In this document: positions 11,590 to 34,048 of the stretch, piece by piece | Layout: every line of letters starts with the position of its first letter | Position numbering within the stretch: position 1 is the stretch's first letter | Assembly (NCBI GenBank): GCA_913055945.1 | Contig: CAJXKU010000003.1 | Location: 1 to 34,048 of the forward strand | Length of the DNA: 34,048 nucleotides | Direction: 5' to 3' | Source of the DNA: an uncultured Lentisphaerota bacterium | GTDB taxonomy: Bacteria; Verrucomicrobiota; Lentisphaeria; Oligosphaerales; CAJXKU01 | Notes under the pieces: generated by a model | Told to the model about the DNA's origin: nothing | What the model saw: only the letters and a program-made list of their open reading frames with translations | The model's database searches: none | Translations under genes and position numbers: made by a program

Positions 11590-11766
11590 GTCTCATACGA
11601 GCCTTTTCCGCCGGACAATGTCCTGATACCCCCGTATGAGACTCGCCGCCTTTGAGAATTCGGCAGACCGCCTAAAGGCGGTACTACAAACCTTCAGATA
11701 TCCAGGGAGACAATTGCTTGTAGTTCCGGCTTCAACCGGATCTTTACCCGGCGAGTCTCATACGAG
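11590..11766. repeat. Mosaic repeat cluster 1: module A plus hinge-bounded REP doublet (module B)
   Basis: Hinges GTCTCATACGAG (11590), CGTATGAGACTCG (11633) and CGAGTCTCATACGAG (11752). REP hairpins at 11668-11687(-) and 11720-11739(+). 11711-11766 is a 55/56 reverse-complement match to 33993-34048. Confidence 0.9.
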
Positions 11767-11804
11767 CTCTGCAGTTCAGATGGTCTTGATAAAAATATTA
11801 CAAG

Positions 11805-11824
11805 GCATCTTCTCTGGAAGATGC
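11805..11824 (-). terminator. Putative intrinsic terminator after the MEDS-PAS kinase gene
   Basis: GCATCTTC-4nt-GAAGATGC hairpin followed on the minus strand by an AT-rich tract (CTTGTAATATTTTT). Confidence 0.4.
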
Positions 11825-11860
11825 GATTCAGGATTCGACGGGAGGTCGGCTGGAAACGCT

Positions 11861-14800
11861 CTATTCGCTGGAGCTCTTCCGGGATACGGAAAGGTCGGCG
11901 TCTTCGATTCTTGGGAGCATAATGCGGAAGGTTGTGCCTTGTCCCTCTTTGCTGTCTACAATAAGGTTGCCCTGATGACGCTGGACGATTCCCTGCAGCA
12001 CGGCCAGGCCTAAGCCGCTGCCGCCGGCTGTCTTGGTGGTATAAAAGGGGTCAAGGCATCTGTCTTCTGTCTCTTCCGCCATTCCCTCACCGTTGTCGCT
12101 GAAGTCTATAACGACGCGTTGATCCTGTACGTAGGTGGATATGTGAATGATGCCATTTTCCGGGATGGCATCGACAGCGTTAAAAATAAGATTTGTTAAC
12201 GCTTCGTTCATTTCAGCTTCATGTCCCCACACCGGAGGGATATCACCGAGATCGGTCTGGATATCAATGGTTTTGCCTGCCGCCGCGGCCTCTTCTTTCC
12301 AGCGGGGTTTGGTAATGGAAATCGCATCTGTGATCGTTTCGTTAAGGTCGAGGGAGTTGAAAGCATCCTGTTCTCTGGGGCGGTAGAACTTGCGCATGCG
12401 GCGAATGGTTTTCGCTGCGTTGGTGGCCGCTTTTTGAACTTGTTCAAGGTAATGCACAGCCTTATCCCGGTCCTGCAGCGTTTCAGGCTGTTCCAGCAGG
12501 AGGGTGGTGAACCCCTGAATCGGAGAGAGGGCGTTGTTGAACTCGTGAGCAATGCCGCTTACCATCGTGGTCAGGGCACGCTGGCGTTCCTGGTCGATGA
12601 GCTGGCTCTGCGTGTTACGCAGTTCTTCCAGGGTATCCTGCAGCCTTTGGTTCGTGGTTTGAAGTTCCTGCTGAGTTTTTCTCCATTCGGTTATGTCATC
12701 GAACACGGCGAGTGCCATCGGTTCATCCGCGAGTCGGAGAGGTGCGCTCTGCAGCAGAAAGATTCGCTCTTCATCTCCGGCGTCACGGTTCAGGCTCATC
12801 TTTGTCTCGACATCATTGTGTTCGCGTTGCCGGTGAAGGGTGTCAAGCAACGTGCAGCGTAACATACATTGCCCGCAATGCTCTGTATGGCCACATCCTG
12901 CCGGATCGTTAAGGGCGTGGATACAGCTCAGCGCTTCTCCAGGATCCAGTCCATACAGCTTTTCCGGAGAAGATCCTGTGAATTCGGCCCCTTGTCTGTT
13001 CACCTGTCTGATGTTCAGGTTGCTGTCCACCAGCACCATCGTGTATGGGACCTTTTTTACGATTGCATTCAGTTCCGACTCGCTGTCAAGCAATGATTGT
13101 TCCGCTCGTTTACGTTCTGTAATATCTCTGACGTGTTCAATGATGCCTGTTATTTGGTTGTTGTGGTCTCTGAGCGGATAGGCGGTGAGCTCGGCCCAGC
13201 GGGGGCCTTGTTCACGGAACAGCTGAATTTCTTCGGTGTGAGGTTCTCCGTTGTACAACGCCCTGATCGAAGGGCACCCTGTACACACTTCTGAGCGATC
13301 GTGGTACGCGGCGTAGCATTTCTTGCCGACTAAAGGCATTTCGGCAGAATGCCTTTTTTCCATCCAGTTGTTGACCTGAACGATGTTGAAATCGGTGTCG
13401 AGGATGCTGAGGCCGTCCTGAATACTGTCAAAAATATTCTGCAGGAACTGCTCGCTTCTTCGCAAGGCTTCTTCCGTGCGTTTATGCTCTGTAATGTCGG
13501 TGGCTACGCAGACCACGTAGGTTACGTTGCCGTTCCCCTCGAGTTTGGGCGTTTTGTCGATCGAGAAAAGCCGTGCTTCACCGTCAACACTTGACAGCCA
13601 TTCTTCTGTGGTTAGAGAGGTTCCGCTCTCGAAGACTTTGCGGTTTCCTTCTTTACAGACTTCGGCGACCTCTTTCGGGAGAAAAGTATCCAACTTTTTA
13701 TGTTCGATATCTTCGCGCCGCAGACCGAAGAAATTGGCGTGGGCCGTGTTGGCCGTTCCGTACGTGTCAACATCGGTCAAATACCATACCTGGGCTTCCA
13801 TGTTTTCCAGCAGAAGTGCCTGTTCGTCACATTTCTGCTGTAGTTCCTGCTTTATGCGGTTGCTTTCTGTAACGTCGCGGATTGTTCCCTGAAATTCGAC
13901 GATTTCGCCGTCTTCGTTCTGAACAGGCACCGACGTAATCAATGTATCAATGACGGAACCGTCTTTTTTGCGCATTTGTATCGGATTATCCTGGACAAAG
14001 CCTCTCTCGCAGATGAGCCGCAGATGTTCGTCTCTCTCGGAGGAGTTGGCGTACATGGCCGGAACCCCCATGCGTTCAAGTTCTTCCCGGCTGTCACAGC
14101 CAAAAAGGTCTACGGTTGCCTCATTTACATCCAGCCATCGTCCGTCCGGACTTGTAATGAACAGGGCGTCTCTACAGGTGCGGAAGAAGTTGCGGTATCT
14201 GTGTTCAGACTGTTGCAAACGTTTTTGGTGTTCAAAGTTCCGTTCTTTGCGGGTTTCAAGTTTTTGCATCCAGTGCTTCAGCTTTTCGTCAGAAGAAGCA
14301 CTCGCTTGTGAGTTGCGGGGCGGGATATAATAAAAGTTTTCGTAGACTTCTGTGCCCAGGATTATGTTTTGATGGGCCTGAAGCACTCTAAGAAGGACGT
14401 CTGCATCACATTGAGATCGATCATATTGGCACAGACCGATGGTCTGGTGGCTGGAAGAGAATTTTTGGTTGAGTTCTATTTCGTATTCGAGCAGCTGATC
14501 AGAGTCGGGCATTCTGCTCAGCACAGGGGTCATATCACTTGCCACCCGAAGGGCTGTATATCCTTCCGCCAGAGCGTTTTCAGCTTCTTTCTGGAGAAAG
14601 GAAAGTGCAGCCTCGGGATCGAAGATATCCCCTTTTACATACATCTTTTCCGGGCTGAGCATCTGCAGACTTCCGCATTCGACCGACTCCTGGAGTGTGC
14701 ATTCGTCTTTTTCCGTATACTCCTGTAGCGGGACAAGCGACTGATCCTGTGAAATGCAAAGCGCTTTCTGGTTCTGCTGCAAACCGCACAGCAGGAACCT

Positions 14801-15072: not shown

Positions 15073-16641
15073 TCAGCGGGCGTGATGAACATTTGCGGCT
15101 TGATTCAGAAGCTGTTCAAAGGCCGCATTAAGTTTTTCTTTAGTCAAAGGTTTAGAGATTATTTTGTCTATATTTTCTGTGCGGCCTTCGTTGACCTCCA
15201 TCATGTCCCCGAATCCCGTAAGCATGATGAGCGGTTTTTCAGGGGCAATGGATTTGATTTCCGCAGCCAGCTGGTCCCCATTCATCTGAGGGGTGGCCCG
15301 GTCAGTGATTACTGCATCATATCTGTCTTTATTGAAATATTCTAAAGCTTGAGCGCCGTGGCATGTGACATCCGCGATATGGCCTTGATGTTCCAGCAAT
15401 TCTTTCAAGAATTCCCGTTGAGACTCTTTGTCTTCGACGATCAGTATCGTGAGAGAAGGGAATCCGCTGGTATTCTGCACGAATGCGGAGGATTCCTGGT
15501 CTTCTTCGTTTTCTGATGGCGGAAAAAGTATCCGGAAGCTCGTACCTTTAGCTTCTTCGCTTTCCACGGTAAAATCGCCCAGATGCCTTTGGATAATTCC
15601 CTGTAGGACGGCGAGGCCCAACCCGCTGCCGTCTGGGCCTTTTGTGCTGTAGAAAGGGTCCAGGCATCGCTGTTTTGTTTCTTCTGACATTCCCATGCCA
15701 GTATCCGAAACCAGCAGCAGTACGTTTTCCTCCTGCATTGAGGTTGTGATTCGGATTGTACCTTCATCGGGAATGGCGTCAACAGCGTTGAAAATGAGAT
15801 TGGTCAGTATCTCGTTGAGTTCCGCTTCATTTCCTTCAATGCAAGGGATGTCGCCCAATTCTGTGTGAATGTCAATGTTTTTTCCGGAAGCTTGAGCCTC
15901 CTCTTTCCACATGAGCCTTGTCACAGAAACGGCGTCTTTGACCACTTTGTTAAGATCAATAGATGTAAATGCGTCCTGTTCCCGCGGACGGTAGAATTTG
16001 CGCATCCTGCGGATGGTTTCCGTGGCGTGATCCGCTGCCTGCTGGATGTGTTTTAGATAATGCAGGGCCTTGTCCTGGTTTTTCAGCATATCGGGTTGTT
16101 CCACCAGCATACTGGAAAAGCCCTGAATAGGGGAGAGCGCGTTGTTGAAGTCATGTGCGATGCCACTGACCATGGTTGTCAGTGCCCGCTGACGTTCATG
16201 GTCGATGAGTTGCTGCTGAGTACTGCGCAGTTCCGTCAGCGTCTCTTCCAGTTTCCGGTTCGTCGTCTTTACATTCTGTTCGGCTTGCCGGCGTTTGGTA
16301 ATATCGAATATTGTGTTTGCAAACCCGGCAGGGGCTTGCTTGTCATCTTTAACTACGGATGCACTGAACAGGATATTCAACTTCTGGCCGCTCTTTGTGG
16401 AGATTGTCATTTCTCCTGTCCATGTCCCGTTCTCTCGCGCTTTTCGGAGCAGCTCTTCGCCTTTGTGTTCATTATCCAGAAATTCTTTTATGTTTTTACC
16501 GACAGCGTCACTGCGTTCACACTCCCAGAGTGACAAAAACGCCGGGTTTACATAAGTCATGACCCCACTCATGTCCGTACAGGAGAAAGCTACAGCCGCG
16601 TATTCGAGGGCATGAGTAAGTGGAAACGGTTGTTCGCTCAT
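15073..16641 (-). CDS. PAS hybrid sensor histidine kinase / response regulator
   Basis: One PAS domain, H-box GIAHDFNN, HATPase boxes and C-terminal REC (ILIVED...ITD...MLTG...KP). Confidence 0.92.
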   Translation of the reverse strand: MSEQPFPLTHALEYAAVAFSCTDMSGVMTYVNPAFLSLWECERSDAVGKNIKEFLDNEHKGEELLRKARENGTWTGEMTISTKSGQKLNILFSASVVKDDKQAPAGFANTIFDITKRRQAEQNVKTTNRKLEETLTELRSTQQQLIDHERQRALTTMVSGIAHDFNNALSPIQGFSSMLVEQPDMLKNQDKALHYLKHIQQAADHATETIRRMRKFYRPREQDAFTSIDLNKVVKDAVSVTRLMWKEEAQASGKNIDIHTELGDIPCIEGNEAELNEILTNLIFNAVDAIPDEGTIRITTSMQEENVLLLVSDTGMGMSEETKQRCLDPFYSTKGPDGSGLGLAVLQGIIQRHLGDFTVESEEAKGTSFRILFPPSENEEDQESSAFVQNTSGFPSLTILIVEDKESQREFLKELLEHQGHIADVTCHGAQALEYFNKDRYDAVITDRATPQMNGDQLAAEIKSIAPEKPLIMLTGFGDMMEVNEGRTENIDKIISKPLTKEKLNAAFEQLLNQAANVHHAR

Positions 16642-16782
16642 ATCTATCTGGCCCTGTCAGTTCTTTCTTTGGTATATGGCGTGAGTGTCTGTGTCCGCTC
16701 TCAATCTGCTGCATTTGTCTTTAAAACGAAACGCCAGTAAAAACGGCGATACTATGTATCGAAGGAAGCGACCTGATAAGTT

Positions 16783-16811
16783 AGCATACACCCCGAAGAA
16801 GTTTTTGCCAA
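16783..16811 (-). promoter_or_regulatory. Putative sigma70 promoter for the hybrid kinase
   Basis: Minus strand TTGGCA-17 bp-TATGCT, about 140 bp upstream of the start codon. Confidence 0.45.
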
Positions 16812-16873
16812 AAGGGTTAGCCGGTGCTGAGTTAATCGGGCGGTCCAGTTAGATGTTTAAGAAGCTGTAACTC

Positions 16874-17081
16874 CCAGAACTCACGCGCATCTCCCGGGTT
16901 CGTGACAGCTGGATTTCTGATCAGGCGGTCTTCTGCAAATGGAATGCAACAGTTCTTACCCCCTGCGACAGCGAAGTCACTCCCTAAGCGCCACGCCTTG
17001 ACGGGCTGAACGCCTGGGGTAATGCAGGCTGATATCACGGATGATTCCGGCTACCAGGTTGCTCAGTATGGTGAGCTCTGG
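16874..17081. repeat. Element E copy 3 (diverged)
   Basis: Starts CCAGAACTCACGC and ends TGAGCTCTGG. The first ~75 bp align with 33762-33838, and it shares TTACCCCCTG with copy 2. Confidence 0.6.
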
Positions 17082-17171
17082 AAACTCGATCTTTCGGAGT
17101 ATTGCGTGCAGCATGACACATCGGCGCGCTCCGTGCGCCGCTCTGCACTGCGTGCAGGCATTGCATGCAGC

Positions 17172-17262
17172 GGACTGCGTCCAGCGTGACGATTACAGCA
17201 TGGATGCTTACGACATGCTGAATGCAATTCCTGAACGCAGTTTGACAGGCTGAACGCAGTTC
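17172..17262 (+). mobile_element. Module C, 91-bp MITE-like element, copy 1
   Basis: Imperfect 19-bp terminal inverted repeats (GGACTGCGTCCAGCGTGAC / GACAGGCTGAACGCAGTTC). Near-identical to 19387-19477 and, inverted, to 33902-33992. Confidence 0.85.
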
Positions 17263-17295
17263 CAAAGCGCTACATAAAACGTAGCGCAGTCCAAA
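17262..17295 (-). repeat. REP-like hairpin of TTTGGA(C/G)TGCG...CGCTTTGG type
   Basis: Minus strand reads TTTGGACT-GCGCTAC-7nt-GTAGCGC-TTTGG. Confidence 0.55.
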
Positions 17296-17375
17296 GACAG
17301 CCTTGCGGCTGTCGTACATGTGGTGATCGACGAAGTCGCAAGATCCCGACCTTTATAAAGTCTCGGGGGCGATCC

Positions 17376-17520
17376 TTCGGAGTGGTCCCGATCTCTCTAG
17401 AGAGATCGGGACTTTGGTACGGCATGCCCTGGCGCGGCGACATTTTTTTGCGATGCGAAAGACCGGACCGGGTTTCGGGCTACCAAAGCGGCGATCGGGA
17501 TGGGTCGCCGCACGCCCAAA
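17376..17520. repeat. REPIN-like inverted pair of GGAGTG-type REPs, the left one carrying a perfect 28-bp palindrome
   Basis: GGAGTG|GTCCCGATCTCTCTAGAGAGATCGGGAC|TTTGG (17379-17417) and CCAAAGCGGCGA...TCGCCGCACGCCCAAA (17483-17520). Confidence 0.65.
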
Positions 17521-17948
17521 ATGCTTCGCATCAGTATACTGATCACCGAAAAAGCCTTCGGCTTACTCATACGTAAAACAGTGGATACTTGTCAAAGTAC
17601 TCGTCTAACAGGACACGTTATGTTGCGGAAAAAGAGTTTATTCAGATCAAATCAGCCATGGTGCGGACTCATTGAAAGCGTTCACGCAACATAACGCCGC
17701 GCACCACATAACTCACTTCGGTACGGCATAAGTTCTGGTTATCTGTTTACGTTCCTTCCGGCCAGCATAGATAGCTCCATGGACAGAAGCTAAATTCATG
17801 ATAGAGTATGGCACCCTATTACTGAAACGATTCAGCTATAGGCAAGGATATATATTCAAAACCGGTTCGGCAAAATCAGGCCGTCTGTCGAAGCTGAAAC
17901 GGCATCCTTTTACTTGTGCAATTTATTGAACCTAAGGAAATACGGACA

Positions 17949-18917
17949 ATGATTAAAACGCTGAAGAAAGGACTTATTACCGGCCTATTGGGTGTGGCAG
18001 GATGCACTATGCTGGCAGCTTCTGCTGAGGAGACGGGAACGCAGCAGATGCAGGGAGGTAACGCGCAGTGGAAAAACCCCATTTCCAACCCGATCTTTAA
18101 TGACACCGCAGAACTCAAGCGGCAGTTCGACTTTCAGTTCATCTGGCAAAGCCTTGCGAGTCACTTCAGGACCATACACGGACCTATTCTGAAGGTAGGT
18201 GTGGATATGAACGTGGGGCTTTTCCAATTGGAATATCCGATCAGCGAGAGGTGGGCGTTACTTATCAATAAGGCTGGCTATATAGATTTCAATCCCAGCG
18301 GAACCCTGATGAATAAACGGGAAGGTTTCGCCAACATTTCAGGCGGCGTCAAGTACGCACTCCCGTCTGCTCAGATAGAGCCGCTGAACTGCGCGGTCCG
18401 TACCACAATTGAAGCACCGACCGGCGATGACCAGGTATTCCAGGATGGGCGCGGCAGCATCAGTCCCGCCTTTATCGCGACTTATGACTTCGACCGAATT
18501 GCCTTAAATGGTGTAGCGGGGGCAATTCTGCCGTTCGATGGGAGCGAACAGAGCAGTAAAGGGTATATGAGCTTCGACTTCGCCGCTAAGCTGACGCGAT
18601 CTGTCTCCTCTCATGTGGAACTCAACTGGTTTCGCGTGTTAGACACGGGTAATGGTGATGCAGTCTATGACAGTCACGGAGAGATCCAGACCGCCAGCCA
18701 TCCCTCGGTAGGATTCGAAGGAGGCGATCTTTTCAACCTGGGTGCAGAGAATGCCGACAAATTTCCGGACCTTGTGACGGGTGCCCTGGGCCTCCGCTAC
18801 CAGGCACTCGAGAATGTCAGTCTCGGCATGGCTTACGAAATTGCAATGACGCACACTCATAAAGAACAGAGTTTTATGGACGAACGGGTAACGGCCAACG
18901 TAAGCATGCAGTTCTAA
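17949..18917 (+). CDS. Putative outer-membrane beta-barrel channel/transporter
   Basis: Signal-peptide-like N-terminus (MIKTLKKGLITGLLGVAGCTMLAASA), amphipathic beta-strand pattern and C-terminal Phe (VTANVSMQF). ANISGGVKY and EAPTG resemble Phenol_MetA_deg-like channels. Confidence 0.7.
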   Translation: MIKTLKKGLITGLLGVAGCTMLAASAEETGTQQMQGGNAQWKNPISNPIFNDTAELKRQFDFQFIWQSLASHFRTIHGPILKVGVDMNVGLFQLEYPISERWALLINKAGYIDFNPSGTLMNKREGFANISGGVKYALPSAQIEPLNCAVRTTIEAPTGDDQVFQDGRGSISPAFIATYDFDRIALNGVAGAILPFDGSEQSSKGYMSFDFAAKLTRSVSSHVELNWFRVLDTGNGDAVYDSHGEIQTASHPSVGFEGGDLFNLGAENADKFPDLVTGALGLRYQALENVSLGMAYEIAMTHTHKEQSFMDERVTANVSMQF

Positions 18918-19195
18918 GTCAGCGTCCCCCCAGATACGGTCTTACGCTGAGTAGCCATATGATACCACTTTCTCAGTATCTATTGTGTATGCACAGCTTC
19001 TCTACTCAGAACCGGAGTGATTGGTTGGGTGAACACTTCTTCTATAAAGAATAGTCAGCCAACATATCGCCGTAATTGATTTCTTCCATAGTTACAAACA
19101 GGGCCGCGCAACCTATAAAAACATAGGATTTAGCGGGTGTGCGACTTCAGGATAAATGAAACATTCTTTGCCCGCTCCCGATTTTGAGACTAATG

Positions 19196-19692
19196 TTTGA
19201 CACGCTGACGCAGTTCTCATACGAGTCTGAGCGCCGGTGTAGCCACCGGACACCCCAGTATGAGACTCGGCAGACATGCTGAAGCATGAACTCCGACGAG
19301 TCGATCGCGCGGTTTTGGCCCGTCAGAGTTCATACTTTAGTATGGTTTGGATTCATGCAGTCGCTGCATACCGAGTCTCATACGAGGGACTGCGTCCAGC
19401 TTGACGCTTACAGCATGGATACTTACGACATGCTTAATGCAATTCCTGAACGCAGTTTGACAGGCTGAACGCAGTTCTCATACGAGCCTGACCGCTGGCC
19501 ATAGTCCAGACACCCCTTACAAGAGACCAACTGCGGCATTGACGGTAAATACTGGCTCCACGCAGTGGTCTCATACGAGCCAAACCGCCGGGCGGCGCAA
19601 CCGCCCTGACACCCCGCGGCGAGACTTTGTCTCCGGTATGTTCCGGCCTTTTTGCGGTACACCTGTCTATGCACGCCGCCCGGCGGTTTGGC
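19196..19692. repeat. Mosaic repeat cluster 2: degenerate C end - A - B - C - A - D - A - inverted half A
   Basis: CTCATACGAG at 19216, 19377, 19477 and 19570; GTATGAGACTCGG at 19258. B 19258-19383, C 19387-19477, D (GAGACCAACTGCG...CGCAGTGGTCTC) 19523-19572. GCCAAACCGCCGGGCGGCG at 19579 recurs inverted ending at about 19692. Confidence 0.9.
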
Positions 19693-20016
19693 TTTATCCC
19701 CCGTATTACACTTGACGCGGTTGCCGGCGGGTGGTACTTCACCGGATAAAACAGCATGAGCTTTCCTGTCCGTTCTTGATCGAAATCGAAATCGCTTTGC
19801 CGATATCTCTTCCTCGCACGACCTATAACCGTTTTAACCGACGTTTTTGCCTGCACGGAACTGCAGTTGATCTTGCATGGAGTCCATGTTATATTCAATA
19901 CGAGCTTTTTGCGCCCGCCTTATCCATTTTCTGTTGCGCAGTCATCGGTCGCGATGAAGTCGATACTATCGACGAAGCGAGGTTTTCCGTAAATTTCAGC
20001 TCAGGACATAACAAGA

Positions 20017-25511: not shown

Positions 25512-25560
25512 CAGCCCCACAGGGACGGGACGATGTTCTGCCTCTTGGAAGCACAGTGCC

Positions 25561-25730
25561 CGTATGAGACTCGGCACCGCGACTGCATGAATCCAAAGCA
25601 TACTGAAGTATGAACTCTGACCAGCCGAACCCGCGCTATCGCCTCGTAGGAGTTCATGCTTCAGCATGTCTTCCGAGTCTCATACCCTGGTGCCTGGGCG
25701 GCTCCGCCGCCCGGCGGGTTGGCTCGTATA
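25561..25730. repeat. Mosaic repeat cluster 3: module B plus module A (inverted relative to cluster 2)
   Basis: GTATGAGACTCGG (25562)...CCGAGTCTCATAC (25673-25685) is the inverted homologue of 19258-19383. 25676-25730 is the reverse complement of an A unit like 19568-19626. Confidence 0.9.
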
Positions 25731-25940: not shown

Positions 25941-25943
25941 GCA

Positions 25944-26039
25944 GTTGATTTTGTGGTTGCATATGCAAGGCAGCGAGATGACGCGGTAGTTCCTACCGCG
26001 AATCGAAGCTAACGAAGCAGATGCAATCACAAAATTAAC
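25944..26039 (+). repeat. Element F: 96-bp nested hairpin (structured RNA or MITE-like)
   Basis: 23-bp arms GTTGATTTTGTGGTTGCATATGC / GCAGATGCAATCACAAAATTAAC enclose a CGCGGTAG-TTC-CTACCGCG hairpin. Confidence 0.65.
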
Positions 26040-26047
26040 CCTTTAGG

Positions 26048-26148
26048 GTAGAAAAACCAAACAACTAACGTTTCACCCAATGGGTGAAACGTTCTAATTA
26101 GCTAACACCTTATAAACCAATAACTTAGAGACTCTTTGGTTTTTCTGC
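26048..26148. repeat. Element G: about 100-bp MITE-like unit with 14-bp TIRs, internal 27-bp palindrome and IHF-like site
   Basis: GTAGAAAAACCAAA / TTTGGTTTTTCTGC ends, AACGTTTCACCCA-A-TGGGTGAAACGTT (26067-26093) and AACCAATAACTTA (26115-26127). Confidence 0.65.
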
Positions 26149-26211
26149 TGCGTATTTTAGGTTGATTGATACACCATCCCCTTAAGACCGACAGTTCTGT
26201 TTCATCCGGTC

Positions 26212-26239
26212 TTGACGAATGGCGAGGACATGTTATTGT
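26212..26239 (+). promoter_or_regulatory. Putative sigma70 promoter of the hydrogenase operon
   Basis: TTGACG-16 bp-TATTGT with an extended -10 TG, immediately upstream of the Rex-like boxes. Confidence 0.55.
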
Positions 26240-26242
26240 AAA

Positions 26243-26277
26243 TTGTGAATTTCGTCACAGAGTGAACACTGTCACAA
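26243..26277 (+). promoter_or_regulatory. Two tandem Rex-like operators
   Basis: TTGTGAA-TTTC-GTCACAG (26243-26260) and GAGTGAA-CACT-GTCACAA (26260-26277) versus the Rex consensus TTGTGAANNNNTTCACAA. Confidence 0.7.
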
Positions 26278-26504
26278 TGCCGCGCGGGTAGATGTTCAAC
26301 AGAGCAAAGCGATGTTGTCGTGGCCGCGGCACGGGAACAAACAAAACAGGGGCTCTAAGAAGGCGCCACGAACTGAATGTTTCAGTTGGACTTCGCCCTT
26401 CAGCGAATGAATCGGCGCTCACCATCCGCCTCCGGCATACGCTTTTCGCCGGTTCGCGGTTCTGAATTACCCCCCTTCGCCACTAACGGATAAGGAGGTT
26501 CCAG

Positions 26505-27017
26505 ATGGGAGAGGTTATAGATTTTGAACAACTCGACGAACACCAGCAGATGGAAAAAGTGGACGAAATTATCGAAGCCGAGAAAAACACGGATGGTGCG
26601 CTCATGCCGATCCTGCAACGCATGCAGCACACGTTCGGTTTCCTGCCGGAACCTGCTTTGAAAAGAGTTGCCAAGCAGCTCAACAAGTCCTATAGCGAGA
26701 TCGTGGGTGTCGTGGGCTTTTACTCTCTCTTTTCCACTACCCCGCGCGGCAAACACACGATCCAGGTCTGCCTGGGAACGGCCTGTTATGTACGTGGCGG
26801 AAAATCCATCCTGGAGGCGATCTCAGAATACCTCGGTATCGGGGTGGGCGAAACCACCGAAGACCGAATGTTCACCCTGGAAGTGGCACGCTGTTTCGGC
26901 GCCTGCGGGCTCGCACCGGCGATCACGGTCGATGACAACGTCCATCACCGCGTAAAGTCGACGAATATACCCGAAATCCTTGAACGTTACCGTGAGGAGG
27001 AAGAGGAGGATACATGA
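26505..27017 (+). CDS. hydC: [FeFe]-hydrogenase NuoE-like [2Fe-2S] subunit (HydC/HndA)
   Basis: FYSLFS...GKHTIQVCLGTACYVRG...RCFGACGLAP; strong TAAGGAGGT RBS. Confidence 0.9.
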   Translation: MGEVIDFEQLDEHQQMEKVDEIIEAEKNTDGALMPILQRMQHTFGFLPEPALKRVAKQLNKSYSEIVGVVGFYSLFSTTPRGKHTIQVCLGTACYVRGGKSILEAISEYLGIGVGETTEDRMFTLEVARCFGACGLAPAITVDDNVHHRVKSTNIPEILERYREEEEEDT

Positions 27018-27224
27018 CACTTTTCAGTTTACAGGTCTTCCCTCACGGGTGGCTTCATACCCCCCGCACTTGCGGCGTCTTTTTGTATAGGGACAATTCA
27101 GGCAGTCAAGTGTTAGAAGAAATCCAGCTCAGCGTTGCAGAATCTCACACGTGCACTGTGTCAATGAGTGAGTGTGCAGATTGAACATCAATCCGAAACA
27201 AACAACCAACGAAGGTCGTCAGTT

Positions 27225-30200
27225 ATGGCAAATACAATTACCTCGCCCAAGGATTTGACCGCCATCAAAGAACGCTTCACCGCTGCACGATGTCCGAAGC
27301 AGGTATTGCTTTGCGCAGGGGCCGGCTGCGTGGCTTCAGGCTCCCAGGAAGTAAGCAAAGCGCTCAGCGAAGAGATACAGAAACACGAACTGGGTTCAGA
27401 GGTGGAGATCATTGAGTGCGGTTGCCTCGGATTGTGTGCACAGGGTCCTGTGGCTCTCGTCCAGCCCGACGGCGTATTCTACGAACAGCTCCAGCCGGAG
27501 GATGCTGCAGAAATCACTGAAAGCCATCTGAAAAACGGCACGGTTGTGGAGCGTCTGTTACACACAACCCCCGAAGGAAAAAAGGTTCCCGAGATCAACG
27601 AAATCCCCTTTTTCCAGAAACAACAGAAGTACGTTTTAAAAAATTGCGGCAACATTGACCCCAATGACATAGATGCCTACATCGCCAACGGCGGCTATAC
27701 GGCGTTAGCCAAATGCCTCACGGAAATGTCTCCGGATGAGGTTGTGGATACCGTTTACCAGTCCGGACTCCGCGGCCGCGGCGGCGCCGGCTTTCCGACA
27801 GGGCTGAAATGGCAGTTTACGCGAAAAGCAGAGGGTGATCAGAAATACGTGCTGTGTAACGCCGATGAAGGGGACCCCGGCGCATTCATGGATCGCAGTG
27901 TGCTGGAAGGGGATCCTCACAGCCTCGTTGAGGCCATGATGATCGCGGGTTACGCTGTGGGAGCCAGCCGGGGCTTTGTTTATGTCCGCGCCGAATACCC
28001 CCTTGCTGTCGAACGCTTGTCCCGGGCACTGGAACAGGCGCGTGAGTACGGCCTGCTCGGACAAAACATTATGGGCCATGATTTCACCTTCGATCTTCAG
28101 ATCCGCATGGGCTCAGGCGCGTTTGTCTGCGGCGAAGAGACAGCCCTGATGCGCTCCGTCGAGGGGAAACGCGGAGAACCCCGCCCCCGCCCGCCATTCC
28201 CGGCAAACAAGGGGCTTTGGGAAAAACCCAGCCTCCTGAACAATGTGGAAACCTATGCCAACGTACCGCAGATCATCCTTAACGGAGCGGAATGGTTCCA
28301 GAACATCGGGACCGAAAAAAGCAAAGGCACCAAGGTATTTGCCTTGGCCGGATCGGTCACATACTCGGGACTGATTGAAGTTCCCATGGGGACCGAACTC
28401 GGCGACATCGTCTACGACATCGGCGGCGGAATTCCGAATGATAAGGAATTCAAGGCCGCCCAGATCGGAGGACCGTCCGGTGGTTGCATCCCGCGGGCAA
28501 ACTTAAGCGTGCCCGTAGATTACGAATCCCTGAGTGAACTCGGGGCGATTATGGGATCCGGCGGACTCGTCGTTATGGACGAAGATTCCTGTATGGTGGA
28601 CATTGCCCGCTTCTTCCTAGAGTTTGTTCAGGAGGAATCGTGCGGCAAATGTACGCCCTGCCGAGTCGGCACCAAACGTATGCTGGAAATGCTGGACCGC
28701 ATCTGTCACGGTCAGGGCGAGGACGGCGATCTTGAAAAACTCGAACAACTGGGCCGCGTAATCACCGACACGGCCCTTTGCGGCTTAGGTCAGACCGCGC
28801 CGAACCCGGTTCTGTCCACAATACGCCACTTCCGCGACGAATACATTGCCCATATCCGGGATAAGCAGTGTCCAGCCAGCTTGTGTCCGGCCCTGGTACG
28901 GGCGCCATGCCAGAACGAATGTCCTGCCAGTGTGGACGTACCCGGTTTCCTCTCATTGATCGGGGAAGAAAGATACAACGAGGCCCTCCGGTTGCACCGG
29001 GAGCGGAATCCGTTCGCAGTGGTATGCTCGAGGGTCTGCCCGAACCCCTGCGAGTCCAAATGCCGCCGGCATACAATGGACGGCGCAGTAGCCGTGCGGC
29101 ATGCCAAAAGATTTATGGTTGATCAGGAAGCCTCAGTTGAACTCCCTGAAGTCCGGGACAACGCGGAAAACGCCTCGCGGAAGATTGCGCTTGTCGGCGG
29201 CGGCCCGGCAAGCTTGGCATGTGGCTACTTTCTCGCCCGGCTGGGGTATAAGCCGACGCTTTTTGAAGCGGAAGAGTACTTGGGCGGCATGATGATGCAG
29301 GCCATTCCTGCTTACCGGCTCCGGCGCGAGCCGCTGGGCTATGAAATCTGGATGATTAAACGCATGGGGGTTGACATTAAAACGCCGATGAAGCTGGGCG
29401 AAGATTTCACGCTTCAGAGTCTTAAAGACGAAGGCTACGACGCAGTGTTTCTAGGTGTGGGGGCTCCGGATGGTATGGCTCTTAAACTCGACGGAGACGG
29501 CAGAGCTGAGGACGATGTCGTGGATGCACTGAACTTTCTGCGGGATTACAACATCCGCTACGGCAGCAAACAGACCGATGAACACGGTAACAGAATCGCA
29601 GTCGTGGGCGGAGGCAACGCCGCCATTGACGCCGCCCGCACTTCCCTCCGTCTCGGCGCTGAAAAGGCCACCGTCATTTATCGGCGTTCACGCGGAGACA
29701 TGCCGGCGTACAACGAAGAGATCGAAGACGCGATCGAGGAAGGTGTAGACCTGGAACTGCTTACCAACCCTGAAGAGGTTATCAGCTCCGAAGACGGCAG
29801 CATCCATGGGGTAAAATGCCGCCGCATGAAACTCGGAAATTTCGATAAGAGCGGCCGCAGACGCCCCACCCCTACGGACGAAATGGTCACCGTGGAGGCG
29901 GATAAAATCATTGCGGCTATCGGACAGAACGTGAATGCCGACCAGCTCGTTTCCCCGGAACAGGTGACATTGACGGAGAATGGCCGCATTCAGGCGGACG
30001 CCGTCAACGGACAGACCTCATTGCCGTGGGTATTCGCAGGAGGCGATTGCGTAACCGGCCCCGCATCAGTCATCGAGGCTGTGGCGGCCGGTGAACGAGC
30101 CGCTGTCGGCATCGACGAATACCTCACGGGGGAAAACCATGCATTCTGGCGGGAAGAAAAACCGGTGGACACTCACGTCGATCCGGATGCGGATCCGTTC

Positions 30201-30347
30201 CCTGACGCTCGTATCGATATCCCAAAAGTGGCGGCGGAACACCGTGCCGACAGTTGGGAAGAAATTGAACAGACCTGGGACAGACGCTTAGCCGTCCGCC
30301 AGGCGAAACGTTGTTTACGGTGCGATTACCGTCCGGAAGAAAATTAA
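27225..30347 (+). CDS. hydB: NuoF-like flavoprotein subunit HydB fused to a GltD/NfnB-like FAD/NADP(H) oxidoreductase module
   Basis: Thioredoxin-like [2Fe-2S] N-terminus (CAGAGC...CLGLC), SGLRGRGGAGFPTG, NADEGDPGAFMDR, GAFVCGEETAL, GGPSGG and ESCGKCTPC. Then PCQNECP, CSRVCPNPCESKC, GGGPAS, GGGNAAIDAAR, YRR, AGGDC and a terminal RCLRC. Confidence 0.88.
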   Translation: MANTITSPKDLTAIKERFTAARCPKQVLLCAGAGCVASGSQEVSKALSEEIQKHELGSEVEIIECGCLGLCAQGPVALVQPDGVFYEQLQPEDAAEITESHLKNGTVVERLLHTTPEGKKVPEINEIPFFQKQQKYVLKNCGNIDPNDIDAYIANGGYTALAKCLTEMSPDEVVDTVYQSGLRGRGGAGFPTGLKWQFTRKAEGDQKYVLCNADEGDPGAFMDRSVLEGDPHSLVEAMMIAGYAVGASRGFVYVRAEYPLAVERLSRALEQAREYGLLGQNIMGHDFTFDLQIRMGSGAFVCGEETALMRSVEGKRGEPRPRPPFPANKGLWEKPSLLNNVETYANVPQIILNGAEWFQNIGTEKSKGTKVFALAGSVTYSGLIEVPMGTELGDIVYDIGGGIPNDKEFKAAQIGGPSGGCIPRANLSVPVDYESLSELGAIMGSGGLVVMDEDSCMVDIARFFLEFVQEESCGKCTPCRVGTKRMLEMLDRICHGQGEDGDLEKLEQLGRVITDTALCGLGQTAPNPVLSTIRHFRDEYIAHIRDKQCPASLCPALVRAPCQNECPASVDVPGFLSLIGEERYNEALRLHRERNPFAVVCSRVCPNPCESKCRRHTMDGAVAVRHAKRFMVDQEASVELPEVRDNAENASRKIALVGGGPASLACGYFLARLGYKPTLFEAEEYLGGMMMQAIPAYRLRREPLGYEIWMIKRMGVDIKTPMKLGEDFTLQSLKDEGYDAVFLGVGAPDGMALKLDGDGRAEDDVVDALNFLRDYNIRYGSKQTDEHGNRIAVVGGGNAAIDAARTSLRLGAEKATVIYRRSRGDMPAYNEEIEDAIEEGVDLELLTNPEEVISSEDGSIHGVKCRRMKLGNFDKSGRRRPTPTDEMVTVEADKIIAAIGQNVNADQLVSPEQVTLTENGRIQADAVNGQTSLPWVFAGGDCVTGPASVIEAVAAGERAAVGIDEYLTGENHAFWREEKPVDTHVDPDADPFPDARIDIPKVAAEHRADSWEEIEQTWDRRLAVRQAKRCLRCDYRPEEN

Positions 30348-30363
30348 GCAGGGAGATACGACA

Positions 30364-32136
30364 ATGCTTACGGCTTATATCAACAACCAGGAAATCCAAG
30401 TCCCGGAAGGAACAACTATTCTGCAGGCCGCGTCTCAGCACGGCATCAGAATTCCCACACTGTGCTACCTGGAGAATCTCCAGGCCATCGGCGCATGCCG
30501 CGTATGTATGGTCGAAGTGGAAGGTGCCCGCAACCTCCTGGCTTCATGCGTTACTGAGGTCAAGGACGGCATGAACATCAAAACCAACACTCGTCGGGTG
30601 CGCGAAGCCAGGCGAAGTGTCGTGGAATTGATGCTTTCCGCCCACGACGGGGACTGTCAAACTTGTGAGCGCAACGACGACTGCGAATTACAGGAACTTG
30701 CCCGCGAACTCGGCATTAGAGAACTCACCTTCACCGGTGAAAAACGCGTCAAGATCGAAGATAACAGCACCCCTGCTCTGTCCCGCGATACGGGTAAATG
30801 CATTTCGTGTCAGCGCTGCATAGCGGTCTGCAACCAGATTCAGGGGGTTGATGCCCTGGCGCCGCAGGACAGGGGCTTTACAACGGTCATCGGGCCGGCC
30901 TTCTGCAGCACCCTTGACTCGGTCGCGTGCGTGCAGTGTGGACAATGCGCTGCCGTGTGCCCGGTGGGGGCCATCAGCGAAAAAGACCATGTCGATGATG
31001 TATGGGATGCCCTGGACGATCCCGACAAACACGTCGTGGTGCAGACGGCTCCGGCAATCCGTGCAGCACTCGGCGAATGTTTCGGCGAAGACCCCGGCAG
31101 TCTCGTGACCGGAAAAATGGTCGCCGCTCTAAGGCGCCTCGGTTTCGACCGCGTCTTTGATACCAACTTTACGGCGGATCTTACAATCGTGGAAGAAGGC
31201 AATGAGCTGCTGACCAGACTCAAACAGACACTTACGGGGGATGGTCAAGCAGTCCTGCCCCAATTCACCAGCTGTTGTCCGGGGTGGATCAAATATATGG
31301 AGTATTTCTACCCTGACATGCTCGAAAACCTCTCCACTTGTAAATCACCGCAACAGATGTTCGGGGCAGTCGCCAAAACCTATTACGCCGAACAGACAGG
31401 TGTGAATCCGGAGAATCTTTACGTTGTCTCCATCATGCCCTGTACCGCGAAAAAGTTTGAATGTGAACGCGAAGAGATGACAGACAGCGGTTACAAAGAT
31501 GTGGACGCTGTGCTCACCACACGGGAGTTGGGCCGCATGATGCAGCAGGCGGGCATAGAATTTGACACGCTTCCTGAAGAAAGACAGGACAGTCCCCTCG
31601 GCAACTCCTCGGGAGCGGCTGATATTTTCGCTAACACCGGAGGTGTGATGGAAGCAGCTCTCAGAACGGCATACGAGGTTGTGACCGGTCGTGAACTGCC
31701 TTTCGACGATCTCCGTGTAGAACCCATCGAATCGCTCGACGGGGTGAAAGCGGCATCAGTTTCTATCACGGATCCCGTCGAAGAATGGTCGTTCCTGGAC
31801 GGCGCCACGCTGAACATCGCCGTCGCGCACGGCCTGGAAAATGCGAATAAGGTCATTCAGCAGGTCAAAAACGGCGAAGCCGAGTACCACTTCGTGGAAG
31901 TTATGACGTGTCCCGGCGGATGCATCGGCGGCGGCGGACAACCGCGGTTTACCGACGACAAGGCACGGCAGCGCCGAATCGACGCTATCTTCAAGGAAGA
32001 TGAACAGAAAGAACACCGCAAATCACACGAAAACCCCGAAATTGTTCAGATTTACCAGGACTTCCTTTCAGAACCGCTGGGGCACAAGTCCCATGAACTG
32101 CTTCACACTGAGTACACAGAGCGCGAGGTGATGTGA
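30364..32136 (+). CDS. hydA: [FeFe]-hydrogenase catalytic subunit (group A, multimeric type)
   Basis: [2Fe-2S], His-ligated [4Fe-4S] (HDGDCQTC..C) and 2x[4Fe-4S] motifs. H-cluster motifs TSCCPGW, MPCTAKKFE and EVMTCPGGCIGGGGQP; C-terminal SHELLHT. Confidence 0.96.
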   Translation: MLTAYINNQEIQVPEGTTILQAASQHGIRIPTLCYLENLQAIGACRVCMVEVEGARNLLASCVTEVKDGMNIKTNTRRVREARRSVVELMLSAHDGDCQTCERNDDCELQELARELGIRELTFTGEKRVKIEDNSTPALSRDTGKCISCQRCIAVCNQIQGVDALAPQDRGFTTVIGPAFCSTLDSVACVQCGQCAAVCPVGAISEKDHVDDVWDALDDPDKHVVVQTAPAIRAALGECFGEDPGSLVTGKMVAALRRLGFDRVFDTNFTADLTIVEEGNELLTRLKQTLTGDGQAVLPQFTSCCPGWIKYMEYFYPDMLENLSTCKSPQQMFGAVAKTYYAEQTGVNPENLYVVSIMPCTAKKFECEREEMTDSGYKDVDAVLTTRELGRMMQQAGIEFDTLPEERQDSPLGNSSGAADIFANTGGVMEAALRTAYEVVTGRELPFDDLRVEPIESLDGVKAASVSITDPVEEWSFLDGATLNIAVAHGLENANKVIQQVKNGEAEYHFVEVMTCPGGCIGGGGQPRFTDDKARQRRIDAIFKEDEQKEHRKSHENPEIVQIYQDFLSEPLGHKSHELLHTEYTEREVM

Positions 32137-32305
32137 TAGATTACTCGTGAAGACCCGCCGCAGTGGCTGCTTACACCTTTGACCGGTTCAGCCCCGTAAA
32201 TGCGGACAATATCGCCCGAGAGGCGGGATACAGCGTACCGGACAACCCGTGAGGCTCCAACAAGACGGCGTAGGACAGAGGAAGGAAACCATAGGAGAAA
32301 ACGAA

Positions 32306-32701
32306 ATGAGCGAAGACAAGCTCACCATACTTCTCGTGGACGATGATGTTGATTTTATCGAGGTGAACAAAGTTTTCCTTGAGCAGGAAGGCTACGAAGT
32401 CTTGACAGCCCATAACAGCAAACAGTGTATGGATGTCCTGAAAGAACAGAAACCCGACGGCATGATCATCGACGTGATGATGGATTACAAAAGTGAAGGC
32501 TTCGACCTTGCTCGAGATCTACGTCACTCAGAAGAGTATAAGGACATTCCGCTGATTATGCTGACGTCCGTAAACAGCCAGTTTCCGTATGACTTTGAAC
32601 CTCACGGAACCTGGCTTCCGGTCGATATCTTTCTGGAAAAACCGATAGAGGGCGACAAACTCGCCGAACAGGTAAACAAACAATTAAAATCCGAGTCATA
32701 G
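32306..32701 (+). CDS. Single-domain response regulator (receiver only)
   Basis: ILLVDDD, IDVMM (phospho-Asp), MLTS and EKP motifs; AGGAG precedes ATG 32306. Confidence 0.88.
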   Translation: MSEDKLTILLVDDDVDFIEVNKVFLEQEGYEVLTAHNSKQCMDVLKEQKPDGMIIDVMMDYKSEGFDLARDLRHSEEYKDIPLIMLTSVNSQFPYDFEPHGTWLPVDIFLEKPIEGDKLAEQVNKQLKSES

Positions 32702-32705
32702 CGTC

Positions 32706-33554
32706 ATGTATAAGATTCTAACAAAAGAAACGATTGCGCAGGATACGTACCGCATGAAGATCGAGGCACCGCTTATCGCTGAAGAGCGGGAGCCGGGACA
32801 GTTTGTCATCCTTTCCGTTCATGGAGAATACGGCGAACGGATCCCCTTAACAATCGCGGATGCGGACAGCAGGGAAGGCAGTATTACTGTAATTTTCCAG
32901 GTGGCGGGCTATTCCACAAGCGAACTGGCCAAGCTGAACCCGGACGACCACGTGCCTGTGCTCCTGGGGCCACTCGGACATCCGACACACATAGACCGTT
33001 TCGGTCATGTGGTATGTGTGGCCGGAGGTATAGGGGCGGCGCCTCTTTACCCCATTGCTGAAGCCCTCCGTGAGAACGGAAATACAATCACGACCATTCT
33101 CGGGGCCCAGTCCAAAGACATGATGATCCTGGAAGAAGAGATGAGATCGCTCAGCGATGAAACCATTGTGTGCACAGACGACGGCACCTATGGCAGAAAG
33201 GATGTCGTTACCGGACCTCTGGAAGAGATTTGCGCAAGCGACCGCACGCCGGATCTGGTTGTCGCCGTCGGTCCGCCGGTCATGATGAAATTCTGCGCTG
33301 AAACCACCAGACCTTACGGAATCAAAACAATGGTTTCGCTCAACACTATCATGATCGACGGTACAGGCATGTGCGGCGGTTGTCGCGTAACAGTCGGCGA
33401 GGAAACAAAATTCACTTGCGTAGACGGACCGGAGTTCGATGGACATCAAGTGGACTTTGACGAGATGATAAACCGCTTAAACGCCTATACAGACCACGAA
33501 CAGGACGCCCTCGAACGTAAGCCCCACTCCGGTTGCTGCCAGTCTGCAGGTTAA
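32706..33554 (+). CDS. nfnA: NfnA/SudB-like FAD/NAD-binding [2Fe-2S] subunit
   Basis: PGQFVIL, GERIPLTIAD, GPLGHP, AGGIGAAP, TDDGTYG, GPPVMMKF and MIDGTGMCGGCRV...FTCVDGPEF (Asp/Cys3 [2Fe-2S] motif of NfnA/SudB). Confidence 0.88.
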   Translation: MYKILTKETIAQDTYRMKIEAPLIAEEREPGQFVILSVHGEYGERIPLTIADADSREGSITVIFQVAGYSTSELAKLNPDDHVPVLLGPLGHPTHIDRFGHVVCVAGGIGAAPLYPIAEALRENGNTITTILGAQSKDMMILEEEMRSLSDETIVCTDDGTYGRKDVVTGPLEEICASDRTPDLVVAVGPPVMMKFCAETTRPYGIKTMVSLNTIMIDGTGMCGGCRVTVGEETKFTCVDGPEFDGHQVDFDEMINRLNAYTDHEQDALERKPHSGCCQSAG

Positions 33555-33761
33555 TCCTCCGCCGGTGTCACCCAACGGCCGCCTCAGCTGAGACTATCCC
33601 GGAACATCTTTGAGTAGGCCACGAAACGGCTCCACGCGGCTACCCATGACCGCGACCCCGTGGCCCCCCGGATACACCAGCATATATGTATCCCGAAACA
33701 CGCACGCGTGATGCCTGGACGTCCATGCATATCTTGCGATCTAACAGGACGACGGGATTAC

Positions 33762-34048
33762 CGGAACTCAAGCGCATCCCCTCGATTTTCGCGACAAGCC
33801 GGATACCTGAGCATGCAGTCTTTTGCAGAGGAATTGCATTCAGCATGTCGTAATGCATCCATGCTGTAATCGTCACGCTGGACGCAGTCCCTCGTATGAG
33901 AGAACTGCGTTCAGCCTGTCAAACTGCGTTCAGGAATTACATTCAGCATGTCATAAGTATCCAGGCTGTAATCGTCACGCTGGACGCAGTCCCTCGTATG
34001 AGACTCGCCGGGTAAAGATCCGGCTGAAGCCGGAACTACAAGCAATTG
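33762..34048. repeat. Mosaic repeat cluster 4: E 5' part fused to partial C - hinge - C - hinge - REP (runs off the window)
   Basis: E-like 33762-33838, partial C 33829-33890, CTCGTATGAG at 33891 and 33993, full C 33902-33992 and REP hairpin 34020-34039. Confidence 0.9.

Follow-up and report, generated by a model that had tools for sequence, protein, structure and literature searches.

A short asymmetric hinge joins small intergenic repeat modules into mosaic arrays in the genome of an uncultured Lentisphaerota bacterium

The window analyzed here, 34,048 nucleotides in length, is the entire contig C3 (CAJXKU010000003.1) of the draft metagenome-assembled genome (MAG) G000 of an uncultured marine Lentisphaerota bacterium, an assembly of 376 contigs, 3.39 Mb and 52.8% G+C. 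Its genes are those of ordinary metabolism and signalling, and the spaces between them hold arrays of small repeat modules that meet at a short asymmetric sequence, which we call the hinge and denote h+ or h− according to its forward or reverse orientation. A sequence-only reading had proposed that the hinge behaves as a recombination or insertion site at which modules named A to D are added, duplicated and shuffled. Scanned with the 12-mer GTCTCATACGAG at no more than one mismatch, the window gives 10 matches (11590, 11631(−), 11755, 19214, 19375, 19475, 19568, 25559(−), 33891(−) and 33993(−)) where chance predicts 0.09; none of 100 shuffles attained as many as 10. About 12 clear copies had been counted; 10 of them stand at this threshold, whereas 19255(−) has two mismatches and the weaker copy at 25674 reads TCTCATACCCT. 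The degenerate copies noticed near 17566, 19520, 19620 and 25722 are also there by eye, with at least three mismatches each. Coordinates in that reading were off by 1 to 3 nt because it included the (C)GAG prefix. As it had stated, every copy lies between long open reading frames (ORFs).

At 11.6 kb, an exact copy of GTCTCATACGAG (h+, 11590..11601, + strand) forms the left arm of a hairpin, module A, whose arms pair over 11 bp (DNA fold z −3.73) around an interior (CCTTTTCCGCCGG..GATACC; 11602..11630, +) in which sequence and fold show a small inner hairpin. The opposite arm, an h− with one mismatch found by motif scan (11631..11642, −), is common to A and to module B1 (11643..11754, +), a head-to-head doublet of GTAG-type repetitive extragenic palindromes (REPs; ..GGCGGTACTAC / GTAGTTCCGGC..) with a fold z of −5.18. 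The outer stem of B1 is its two flanking hinges, a 16-bp hinge stem, and the second of these (h+, 11755..11766, +, motif scan) ends the array, with unique DNA after it. A longer array begins with a hairpin A (19214..19266, +) consisting of h+ at 19214-19225, an h− with two mismatches at 19255-19266 and an interior with the perfect inner stem CCGGTG/CACCGG. It continues through module B2 (19267..19374, +), a REP doublet of a second type (GAGTTCATRCTTYAGYATG) with an internal hinge-like ACTCCGACGAG; the h+ that joins B2 and C (19375..19386, +, motif scan); and module C (19387..19474, +), about 90 nt long, whose ends are the inverted 14-mers GGACTGCGTCCAGC and GCTGAACGCAGT(TC). An AD unit follows (19475..19567, +), composed of h+ at 19475-19486, an A interior, a degenerate h− (..CAAGAGAC) and module D ending in CCACGCAGTGG, and then h+ with module E (19568..19696, +), in which an A-type start is extended into a hairpin with a 20-bp stem (AGCCAAACCGCCGGGCGGCG / CGCCGCCCGGCGGTTTGGCT; fold z −6.36); along a homologue of E there are 22-69 genomic matches. 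Module F (19697..19796, +) is the usual follower of E. Farther along lies an inverted B2-A (25559..25729, −), in which an h− with one mismatch (25559-25570) precedes an inverted B2, the degenerate hinge at 25674 and an inverted E-type A interior, with repeat matches of 87% and 80%. At the end of the contig, a partial inverted C recognized by its repeat matches (33829..33890, −) is followed by h− at 33891-33902, a full inverted C and h− at 33993-34004, together one 102-nt hinge-to-hinge unit (33891..34004, −), and by the start of an inverted B1 (34005..34048, −; 98% to 11711-11766) that the contig end truncates. The module orders previously given as A-B at 11.6 kb, A-B-C-A-D-A at 19.2-19.7 kb and inverted B-A at 25.6 kb are correct; for C-C-B at 33.8-34.0 kb the order stands, with the first C only partial and the B cut by the contig end.

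Not all repeats in the window carry hinges. One module C copy (17172..17262, +) has a hinge on neither side and lies inside a larger hinge-poor mosaic (16875-17720). This C copy, its mosaic and those at 6950-7131 and 25930-26165 had been missed; their presence makes the hinge system one layer of a very repeat-rich intergenic space. Segments of the hinge-poor mosaics, including 25731-25777, have 10-110 genomic copies each and almost no hinges. The stretch 6950-7131 is an element of about 180 nt with inverted ends CAGAACTCA(A/C)GC and GCGTGAGTTCTG, and its left end recurs at 25731-25777 (89%).

Genome-wide, the 11-base hinge TCTCATACGAG occurs at 139 exact sites against about 1.6 expected, and at 248 sites when one mismatch is allowed, against 31 in the reversed genome that served as the control for genome-wide counts. 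A recurrent flank family is touched by 217 of these 248 sites, and just 11 of the 217 family-associated hinges fall wholly within ORFs of at least 150 aa, which make up 82.5% of the genome. The sites group into 130 arrays on 109 contigs, and 74 of the arrays lie within 400 nt of a contig end. Modules A to D are repeat families throughout the genome, with 42 full-length copies of C, 23 of B1, 28 of B2 and 22 of D, and 94 A-type right flanks. Modules also have junctions other than the hinge: of the 42 full-length C copies, 13 have no hinge on either side.

The flanks, classified by ungapped clustering of the 20 nt on either side of each hinge, fall into 12 left and 4 right families, and 24 of the 48 possible pairs occur at a hinge. 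Because the clustering was ungapped and confined to 20 nt, some true copies stay unclassified, among them the window A at 11591/11631. The big left families are L1 (M-palindrome ends), L2 (the B2 end), L3 (the B1 end) and L4 (the D end), and each of them adjoins R1 (the A interior), R2 (the C start) and unique DNA, so that 12 of 12 table cells are filled, with a mild departure from independence (chi2 17.8, 6 d.f., p = 0.007). L5-R3 is the only fixed left-right pair. The dinucleotide AG stands directly before the hinge at 110 of 215 sites. Two hinge variants keep particular company, TCTCATACCAG accompanying the B2 left end and one A subfamily and TCTCCTACGAG being confined to L5-R3. The table supports the view of the hinge as a genome-wide combinatorial junction.

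Spacing and orientation follow strict rules. Pairs of the type h+..h− lie 25-60 nt apart (n = 11) and correspond to hairpin A; h−..h+ pairs lie 110-135 nt apart (n = 26, none below 86 nt) and correspond to the REP doublets B; and direct h+..h+ pairs lie 61-135 nt apart (n = 86) and correspond to AD and C units, hinge orientation being fixed for each module. Among full-length copies, 14 of 23 B1 and 14 of 28 B2 are flanked by h−/h+, a further 9 of 28 B2 have h+ on the right and none on the left, and 16 of 42 C are flanked by h+/h+. The direct hinge-to-hinge units (n = 68) include 32 of the AD family (91-97 nt), 24 of the C family and 7 of a half-B2 family. No true tandem h-h pair exists among the genome-wide hinge pairs, and neighbouring modules therefore share one hinge copy. 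Empty h-h+ palindromes, considered as a pre-insertion target for B modules, were not found in the genome.

Within the modules, A is a hairpin whose outer stem is hinge and anti-hinge. A perfect inner stem of at least 6 bp is present in 24 of 94 A copies, compared with 53 of 1880 shuffles, and these stems comprise at least five different complementary sequences; the 3′ arm is good in only 15 of the 94 and degenerate in 79. The REPs of B1 are of the same kind as those flanking the gene for a REP-associated tyrosine transposase (RAYT) on contig C25. Both C and D begin and end with inverted 14-mers around xxAC-TGC-GTxx palindromes. A search of Rfam gave no family at its gathering threshold, and none at E ≤ 1 over 16600-20100. 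The only sub-threshold match, to the Rfam motif Acido-Lenti-1 on contig C111 (409-454, locus L090; 29.6 bits, gathering 37), falls on an unrelated GTAG-type REP-like repeat, and this motif may overlap REP-type repeats in genomes of the Planctomycetes-Verrucomicrobia-Chlamydiae (PVC) group. Contig C111 also has a hexanucleotide run inside an array (645-715), AATCCC and then AATCCT, of about 11 units.

Neighbouring units are not close relatives. In nine adjacent pairs the median identity is 62%, compared with a median of 91% for the best match elsewhere in the genome, and all 18 units have a closer match elsewhere than in their neighbour. Arrays therefore grow by insertion, and local tandem duplication or slippage is rejected on these identities. 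Arrays also usually end exactly at a hinge: in 51 cases a family member and a hinge are followed by non-family DNA, with no target-site duplication (TSD) or conserved base beyond the hinge among the 51 ends. Unclassified DNA to the left of a hinge was seen in only 16 cases, about six of them apparently truly unique.

These arrays are not an assembly artefact, as independently assembled metagenome contigs of the same organism confirm. They supplied 44 loci, of which 37 match the MAG at 98.9% or more over at least 250 nt, and arrays between unique flanks were reproduced at 99.9-100% in L044, L058, L059, L062, L064, L065, L073, L078 and L079 (for example, L065 against C20, 99.97% over 3117 nt; L059 against C33, 99.97% over 3023 nt). 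Departures from the MAG (L063 against the window, L050 against C20, and L049, L043, L074 and L048) all lie at contig ends and are therefore indistinguishable from choices of assembly path. A 168-nt indel between L039 and C92 lies in a 92%-identical paralogous gene and not in an array. Over 16000-27000, contigs of one public run, X1 (0.32 of words), which contains the region at about 2-5x depth, showed only repeat-driven joints, with no anchored gain or loss.

The hinge is present beyond this genome. Among 75 genomes of the order, the relatives being draft MAGs throughout, the pattern TCTCATACNAG is found (count/reversed control) 161/3 times in G000, 161/5 in G018, 46/1 in G002, 14/0 in G025, 15/1 in G029 and 15/6 in G031, the remaining genomes being near background. 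Within genus g17 the count is 161 in one genome and, with a control of 6, just 15 in the other. Lineages differ in the variant they carry, ACGAG in G000, G025 and G029, ACAAG together with ACCAG in G018, and ACAAG in G002. In G002 the same hinge and A unit (TCTCATACAAG-CCCGGCCGCCGG-hairpin-GGATACCC..GAGAC) stands behind varied left flanks; in G025 the hinge closes a conserved 55-nt module with varied DNA after it; and in G018 it lies within a partly modular element of about 250 nt, 20 of 26 sampled hinge-like sites sharing the right-flank context. Three families of the order thus keep the same hinge core beside different flanking modules, and the hinge is, judged from these sequences, older than G000. 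An exact 14-mer scan (0 in 30 relatives) had suggested a system unique to G000, a conclusion overturned by the relaxed pattern. A 20-base hinge-plus-A pattern gave only four single matches in the species collection. Viral contigs yielded 0 matches, and hinge strings in published text are probably primers, judging by titles. On sequence resemblance, the junction of B2 end, hinge and inverted A in G000 has a diverged counterpart in a different family of the order (G011:C15:16931-16983, L093), where CCGAG-TTTCACAAAAG-GGTATCCGG comes after a single REP2-type unit.

G000 is the sole representative of its own family among the species representatives searched, and the best protein matches, at 51-73% identity to MAGs of Planctomycetota, Verrucomicrobiota, Kiritimatiellae and Victivallales, place it near the PVC group. 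The gene cluster at 26505-33554 encodes a NuoE-like subunit, a 1059-aa NuoF/GltD-like fusion, a group A6 NADH-dependent [FeFe] hydrogenase (NF040763, 891.7 bits) and a sulfide/dihydroorotate dehydrogenase-like FAD/NAD-binding protein (NF004862), and indicates an anaerobic, hydrogen-cycling lifestyle.

What enzyme might assemble the arrays was sought in the window and in the whole MAG, whose listed completeness of 86.95% sets the scope of every enzyme absence reported here. The 16 window ORFs include no transposase, in line with the earlier statement that the responsible enzyme is not in the window. The Y1 genes of G000 are two RAYTs (NF047646, 86.8 and 109.9 bits, both above cut-off) and one IS200-like TnpA; in G018, RAYT-like genes have repeats other than the hinge at their flanks. 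In the higher-scoring RAYT (C258:1338-2030, L021) a palindromic repeat pair (GGGAACGCCGAGCCCCAGCTCGGC .. GCCGAGCTGGGGCTCGGCGTTCCC) occurs both inside the reading frame and upstream. The 87%-complete MAG has no TnpB, no serine recombinase and no small GIY-YIG Ssn nuclease, PF01541 matching two long ORFs of 497 and 427 aa; of its seven tyrosine recombinases, none reaches the TIGR02249 or NF011946 cut-offs for an integron integrase (best TIGR02249 score 157, cut-off 265). One further Y1_Tnp (IS200-like) match lies at residues 708-788 of a 1669-aa Eco57I/MmeI-type restriction-modification ORF (C26:1341-6347, L091), between its methylase domains, and three repeat islands fall within the span of this ORF.

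Three guest insertion sequence (IS) elements in G000 are bracketed by hinges. The first (C300:2133-3860, L088) encodes an ISH6-like DDE transposase of 415 aa (NF041731, 182.8 bits, cut-off 240), has terminal inverted repeats (TIRs) of its own (GGTCGCGTC..) and an 8-bp duplication (AATCGCTT), and is inserted inside a D module. The other two, on C111 and C164, belong to the IS110 family and have both the DEDD_Tnp_IS110 and the Transposase_20 domains (in C164, PF01548 at 2e-23 and PF02371 at 3.8e-13). The C111 element (947-2719, L090) is apparently intact, with a 443-aa ORF, and splits the centre of the M palindrome of a D-type module between GCTGAAC and GCAGTT. Within its 3′ non-coding region of about 375 nt, 11 nt of the left junction recur exactly (GCTGAACCATA), which suggests another guide-target pair, this one directed at a different repeat in the mosaic.

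The C164 element abuts the hinge with its right end, and its transposase has orthologues in 8 of the 75 genomes. The right ends are GGTCAAG before TCTCATACGAG in G000, CACCAAG before TCTCATACAAG in G018 and GAGCAAG before TCTCACACAAG in G026, and a second, distant IS110 lineage in G018 ends ..CGCAAG before TCTCATACAAG; all right ends at the hinge thus read ..AAG, the left junctions having been placed by eye only. In each of the three genomes an internal segment of the 3′ non-coding region equals the last 7 nt of the flanking 11-mer at 7 of 7 positions (CATACGAG in G000, CATACAAG in G018, TACACAAG in G026), and two positions of segment and hinge-like flank covary across the three. The 3′ block is conserved in four orthologues, with 29 predicted pairs of which 8 show compensatory change, and the 7-nt segment lies beside conserved stems; in G024, the fourth orthologue, the segment differs again (GAAATAAG). 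By its position and covariation, the segment is what a bridge- or seek-RNA target guide would look like. One module end, L9 (GGTTCTCGCGGTCAAG), resembles the IS right end CGTTCTCACGGTCAAG. Module E was considered as the left end of the C164 element and set aside, though not with certainty, because it is absent from the remnant on C83 and from the G018 and G026 orthologues. On a 1.6-kb contig of G024 (C301, L160) the IS110 3′ RNA-like block stands upstream of the transposase start, a layout that would be expected from a circular or tandem IS junction.

Our preferred reading, to which we give an even chance, is that the hinge TCTCATAC(G/A/C)AG forms the common terminal sequence of a family of mobile modules, small, non-coding and able to fold into hairpins, that occurs across one bacterial order, and that in G000 these modules build a mosaic resembling the bacterial interspersed mosaic elements (BIMEs) and neisserial intergenic mosaic elements (NIMEs). 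Each new module would enter conservatively and site-specifically at a hinge already in place, and each insertion would regenerate the hinge on both sides, so that arrays could grow and mix. The most likely driver would be either an IS110-family bridge/seek-RNA recombinase acting in trans with an AG crossover, as for ISPpu9 and MITEPpu9, or a Y1/HUH transposase of RAYT or IS200 type recognizing hinge and hairpin on single strands. The proposal that the hinge is a recombination or insertion site is partly supported, by the combinatorial junction, the single shared hinge, the missing TSD, the closer matches of units outside their own array and the IS110 insertion at its left edge.

Several observations weigh against the preferred reading. 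The three Y1 genes are flanked by their own GTAG-type REPs, with no hinge on C25, C51 or C258, and C25-type RAYTs, present in 33 of the 75 genomes, are unrelated to hinge abundance. Genes bracketed by hinges in G000, G002 and the metagenome contigs are housekeeping genes (UvrA, MiaB-like, MtaB, PriA and others) or guest IS, and these guest-like IS elements are the only hinge-flanked recombinase or nuclease genes. The C164 element has a single copy in G000, its reading frame interrupted; this query found no such IS110 in hinge-rich G002, G025 and G029, and did find it in hinge-poor G024 and G026. In G026 the hinge-like motif has only two copies and could for that reason be part of the IS end instead of its target. 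The module ends are largely unlike those of the IS: its right end is shared by the L9 family alone (four copies), modules begin on the left (hinge + CC..CCGCCGG) quite unlike the left end inferred for the IS, and the largest left family, L1 (67 sites), ends ..GTTC and not AG. Finally, 13 of 42 C copies are free of hinges, and no gain, loss or inversion was seen between anchored assemblies, the anchored arrays being identical; the module inversion and shuffling that had been proposed were not observed directly, assemblies differing at contig ends only.

An alternative is a mosaic that formed passively, the hinge being only the conserved outer stem or terminus of several families resembling REPINs (REP doublets forming hairpins) or miniature inverted-repeat transposable elements (MITEs). 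Their arrays would come about through elements landing close together and through homologous recombination or gene conversion between hinge copies of 11-14 nt, which would exchange neighbours; the hinge would have no activity dedicated to it, and IS110 would use it as a convenient repeated target. We consider this somewhat unlikely. It would account for hinge variants that travel with particular modules, for the largely fixed element that holds most sampled hinges in G018, for the hinge-free C copies and for the mild non-independence of the flank table, and REP dimers within longer palindromes are known (PMC3733652). Yet an identity of 11 nt is short for RecA-type exchange, the junctions are nevertheless exact and never show tandem hinges, 51 arrays stop exactly at a hinge, three families have the conserved core in common but not the modules beside it, and neighbouring units are unrelated copies. 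More clearly improbable is a host-function motif, in which selection would keep the hinge because something binds or processes it, for example a nucleoid protein (compare the IHF site in BIME-1), an RNase or a terminator-associated signal, and the modules would be its carriers. Only single-base hinge variants across families of the order, strictly intergenic placement and hairpins that always adjoin the hinge agree with such a role; the patchy distribution, with unequal counts inside genus g17 and most of the 75 genomes at background, the occurrence of window arrays in convergent, tandem and divergent regions alike and the lack of an Rfam family match speak against it.

That the hinge is the terminal inverted repeat of one DDE-type IS or MITE, with the mosaic produced by nested insertions and their target duplications, is very improbable. 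Inverted hinges do flank the B modules and one array contains an ISH6-like DDE element, but the TIRs and 8-bp TSD of that element are unrelated to the hinge, the 51 array ends have neither TSD nor conserved base, direct hinges surround AD and C units, and neighbours have one hinge in common. Collapse of repeats during assembly is scarcely credible as a source of the arrays. It would be suggested by the 64 of 139 exact hinges that lie within 200 nt of a contig end, by the metagenome contigs that diverge from the MAG inside arrays at contig ends, and by the short repeat islands, which total 113 kb (3.3% of the assembly) and contain 231 of its 752 contig ends. Against it, many contig-internal arrays were reproduced base for base between unique flanks by the independent assembly, and related systems exist in other genomes. 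The concentration of contig ends in islands means instead that the true repeat content is higher than 3.3%, and its practical consequence is that these repeats fragment assemblies.

Conservative insertion at the hinge also has a bolder form, which we consider unlikely: the whole mosaic would be a cassette system run by RNA-guided IS110-family recombinases, with the hinge as a programmed crossover, modules excised and re-inserted as small circles where AG meets the hinge, and hinge variant and guide co-evolving between genomes of the order. If true, this would be the first genomic intergenic repeat architecture written by a programmable recombinase. How intergenic mosaics such as BIMEs and NIMEs are assembled has been an open question for decades, and the present system offers unusually clean junctions, more than 200 in number, each built on a single asymmetric 11-mer and subject to strict rules of orientation. 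Together with a guide-like segment that tracks hinge variants, these junctions make two ideas directly testable, namely that repeat mosaics grow through conservative site-specific insertion at a shared site and that RNA-guided IS110 recombinases retarget while their repeat targets drift.

The grammar of the arrays had been described as unrecognized; it has parallels in BIMEs and NIMEs, while module B is simply a REP doublet of the ordinary GTAG type. In NIMEs, RS repeat units are flanked by dRS3. The two systems share a short conserved punctuation repeat around diverse units of 50-150 nt in intergenic arrays, and the dRS3 repeat is a target of an IS110/Piv-type recombinase. They differ in sequence, in that dRS3 is itself palindromic while the asymmetric hinge needs another, inverted copy as its pairing partner, in the lack of a small GIY-YIG Ssn nuclease from the 87%-complete MAG, and in the host, which is PVC-like and of a different phylum. 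The dRS3 motif ATTCCC-N8-GGGAAT has 0 matches in the window at up to one mismatch, and the SRM regular expression of PMC11893778 was compared by eye. That paper gives the dRS3/NTS sequences and their hairpin nature, and describes the Ssn nuclease as well as a recombinase of phage origin directed at these repeats. Integron attC sites offer another likeness, in that direct arrays of imperfect palindromes with conserved outer arms and a variable inner stem separate short cassettes, one core per junction. Here, in contrast, no integrase scores above cut-off, the cassettes are non-coding repeats, most A copies have a degenerate 3′ arm, and the hinge does not fit the attC consensus GTTRRRY.

Another near relation is ISPpu9, an IS110-family element of Pseudomonas putida, which inserts into REP/BIMEs with its crossover at AG and mobilizes a MITE-like partner, MITEPpu9; its non-coding partner modules, found next to the IS as well as at other sites, combine in modular fashion (PMC12288879). 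Insertion of IS110-family elements into REP/BIME clusters is described in both PMC12288879 and PMC3733652. The ..AAG right ends at the hinge, and the AG before about half of all hinges, recall that crossover. The system described here differs in having dozens of module families and more than 200 junctions, compared with one MITE of 8 copies, in module ends mostly unlike IS ends, and in a guide-like RNA block situated 3′ of the transposase gene. With E. coli-type BIMEs and REPIN-RAYT systems it shares extragenic location, hairpin formation and orientation-dependent linkers between palindromic units. The two GTAG REPs of B1 are of a kind also found around a RAYT gene in G000; the hinge/A unit, though palindromic, has no GTAG or CGTC head, the A units are direct instead of alternating, with whole repeat families between them, and no cognate RAYT flanked by hinges is present in the 87%-complete MAG. 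REP dimers within longer palindromes are documented for A. variabilis and H. neapolitanus (Di Nocera et al. 2013), and mosaic REP clusters have also been published (PMC3733652). B1 and B2, as REP dimers enclosed by a longer inverted repeat formed by the hinges, resemble them, but in those cases the enclosing palindrome is not found without REPs, whereas the hinge also bounds other modules and forms the stand-alone hairpin A. Overall, the system is a BIME/NIME-like mosaic.

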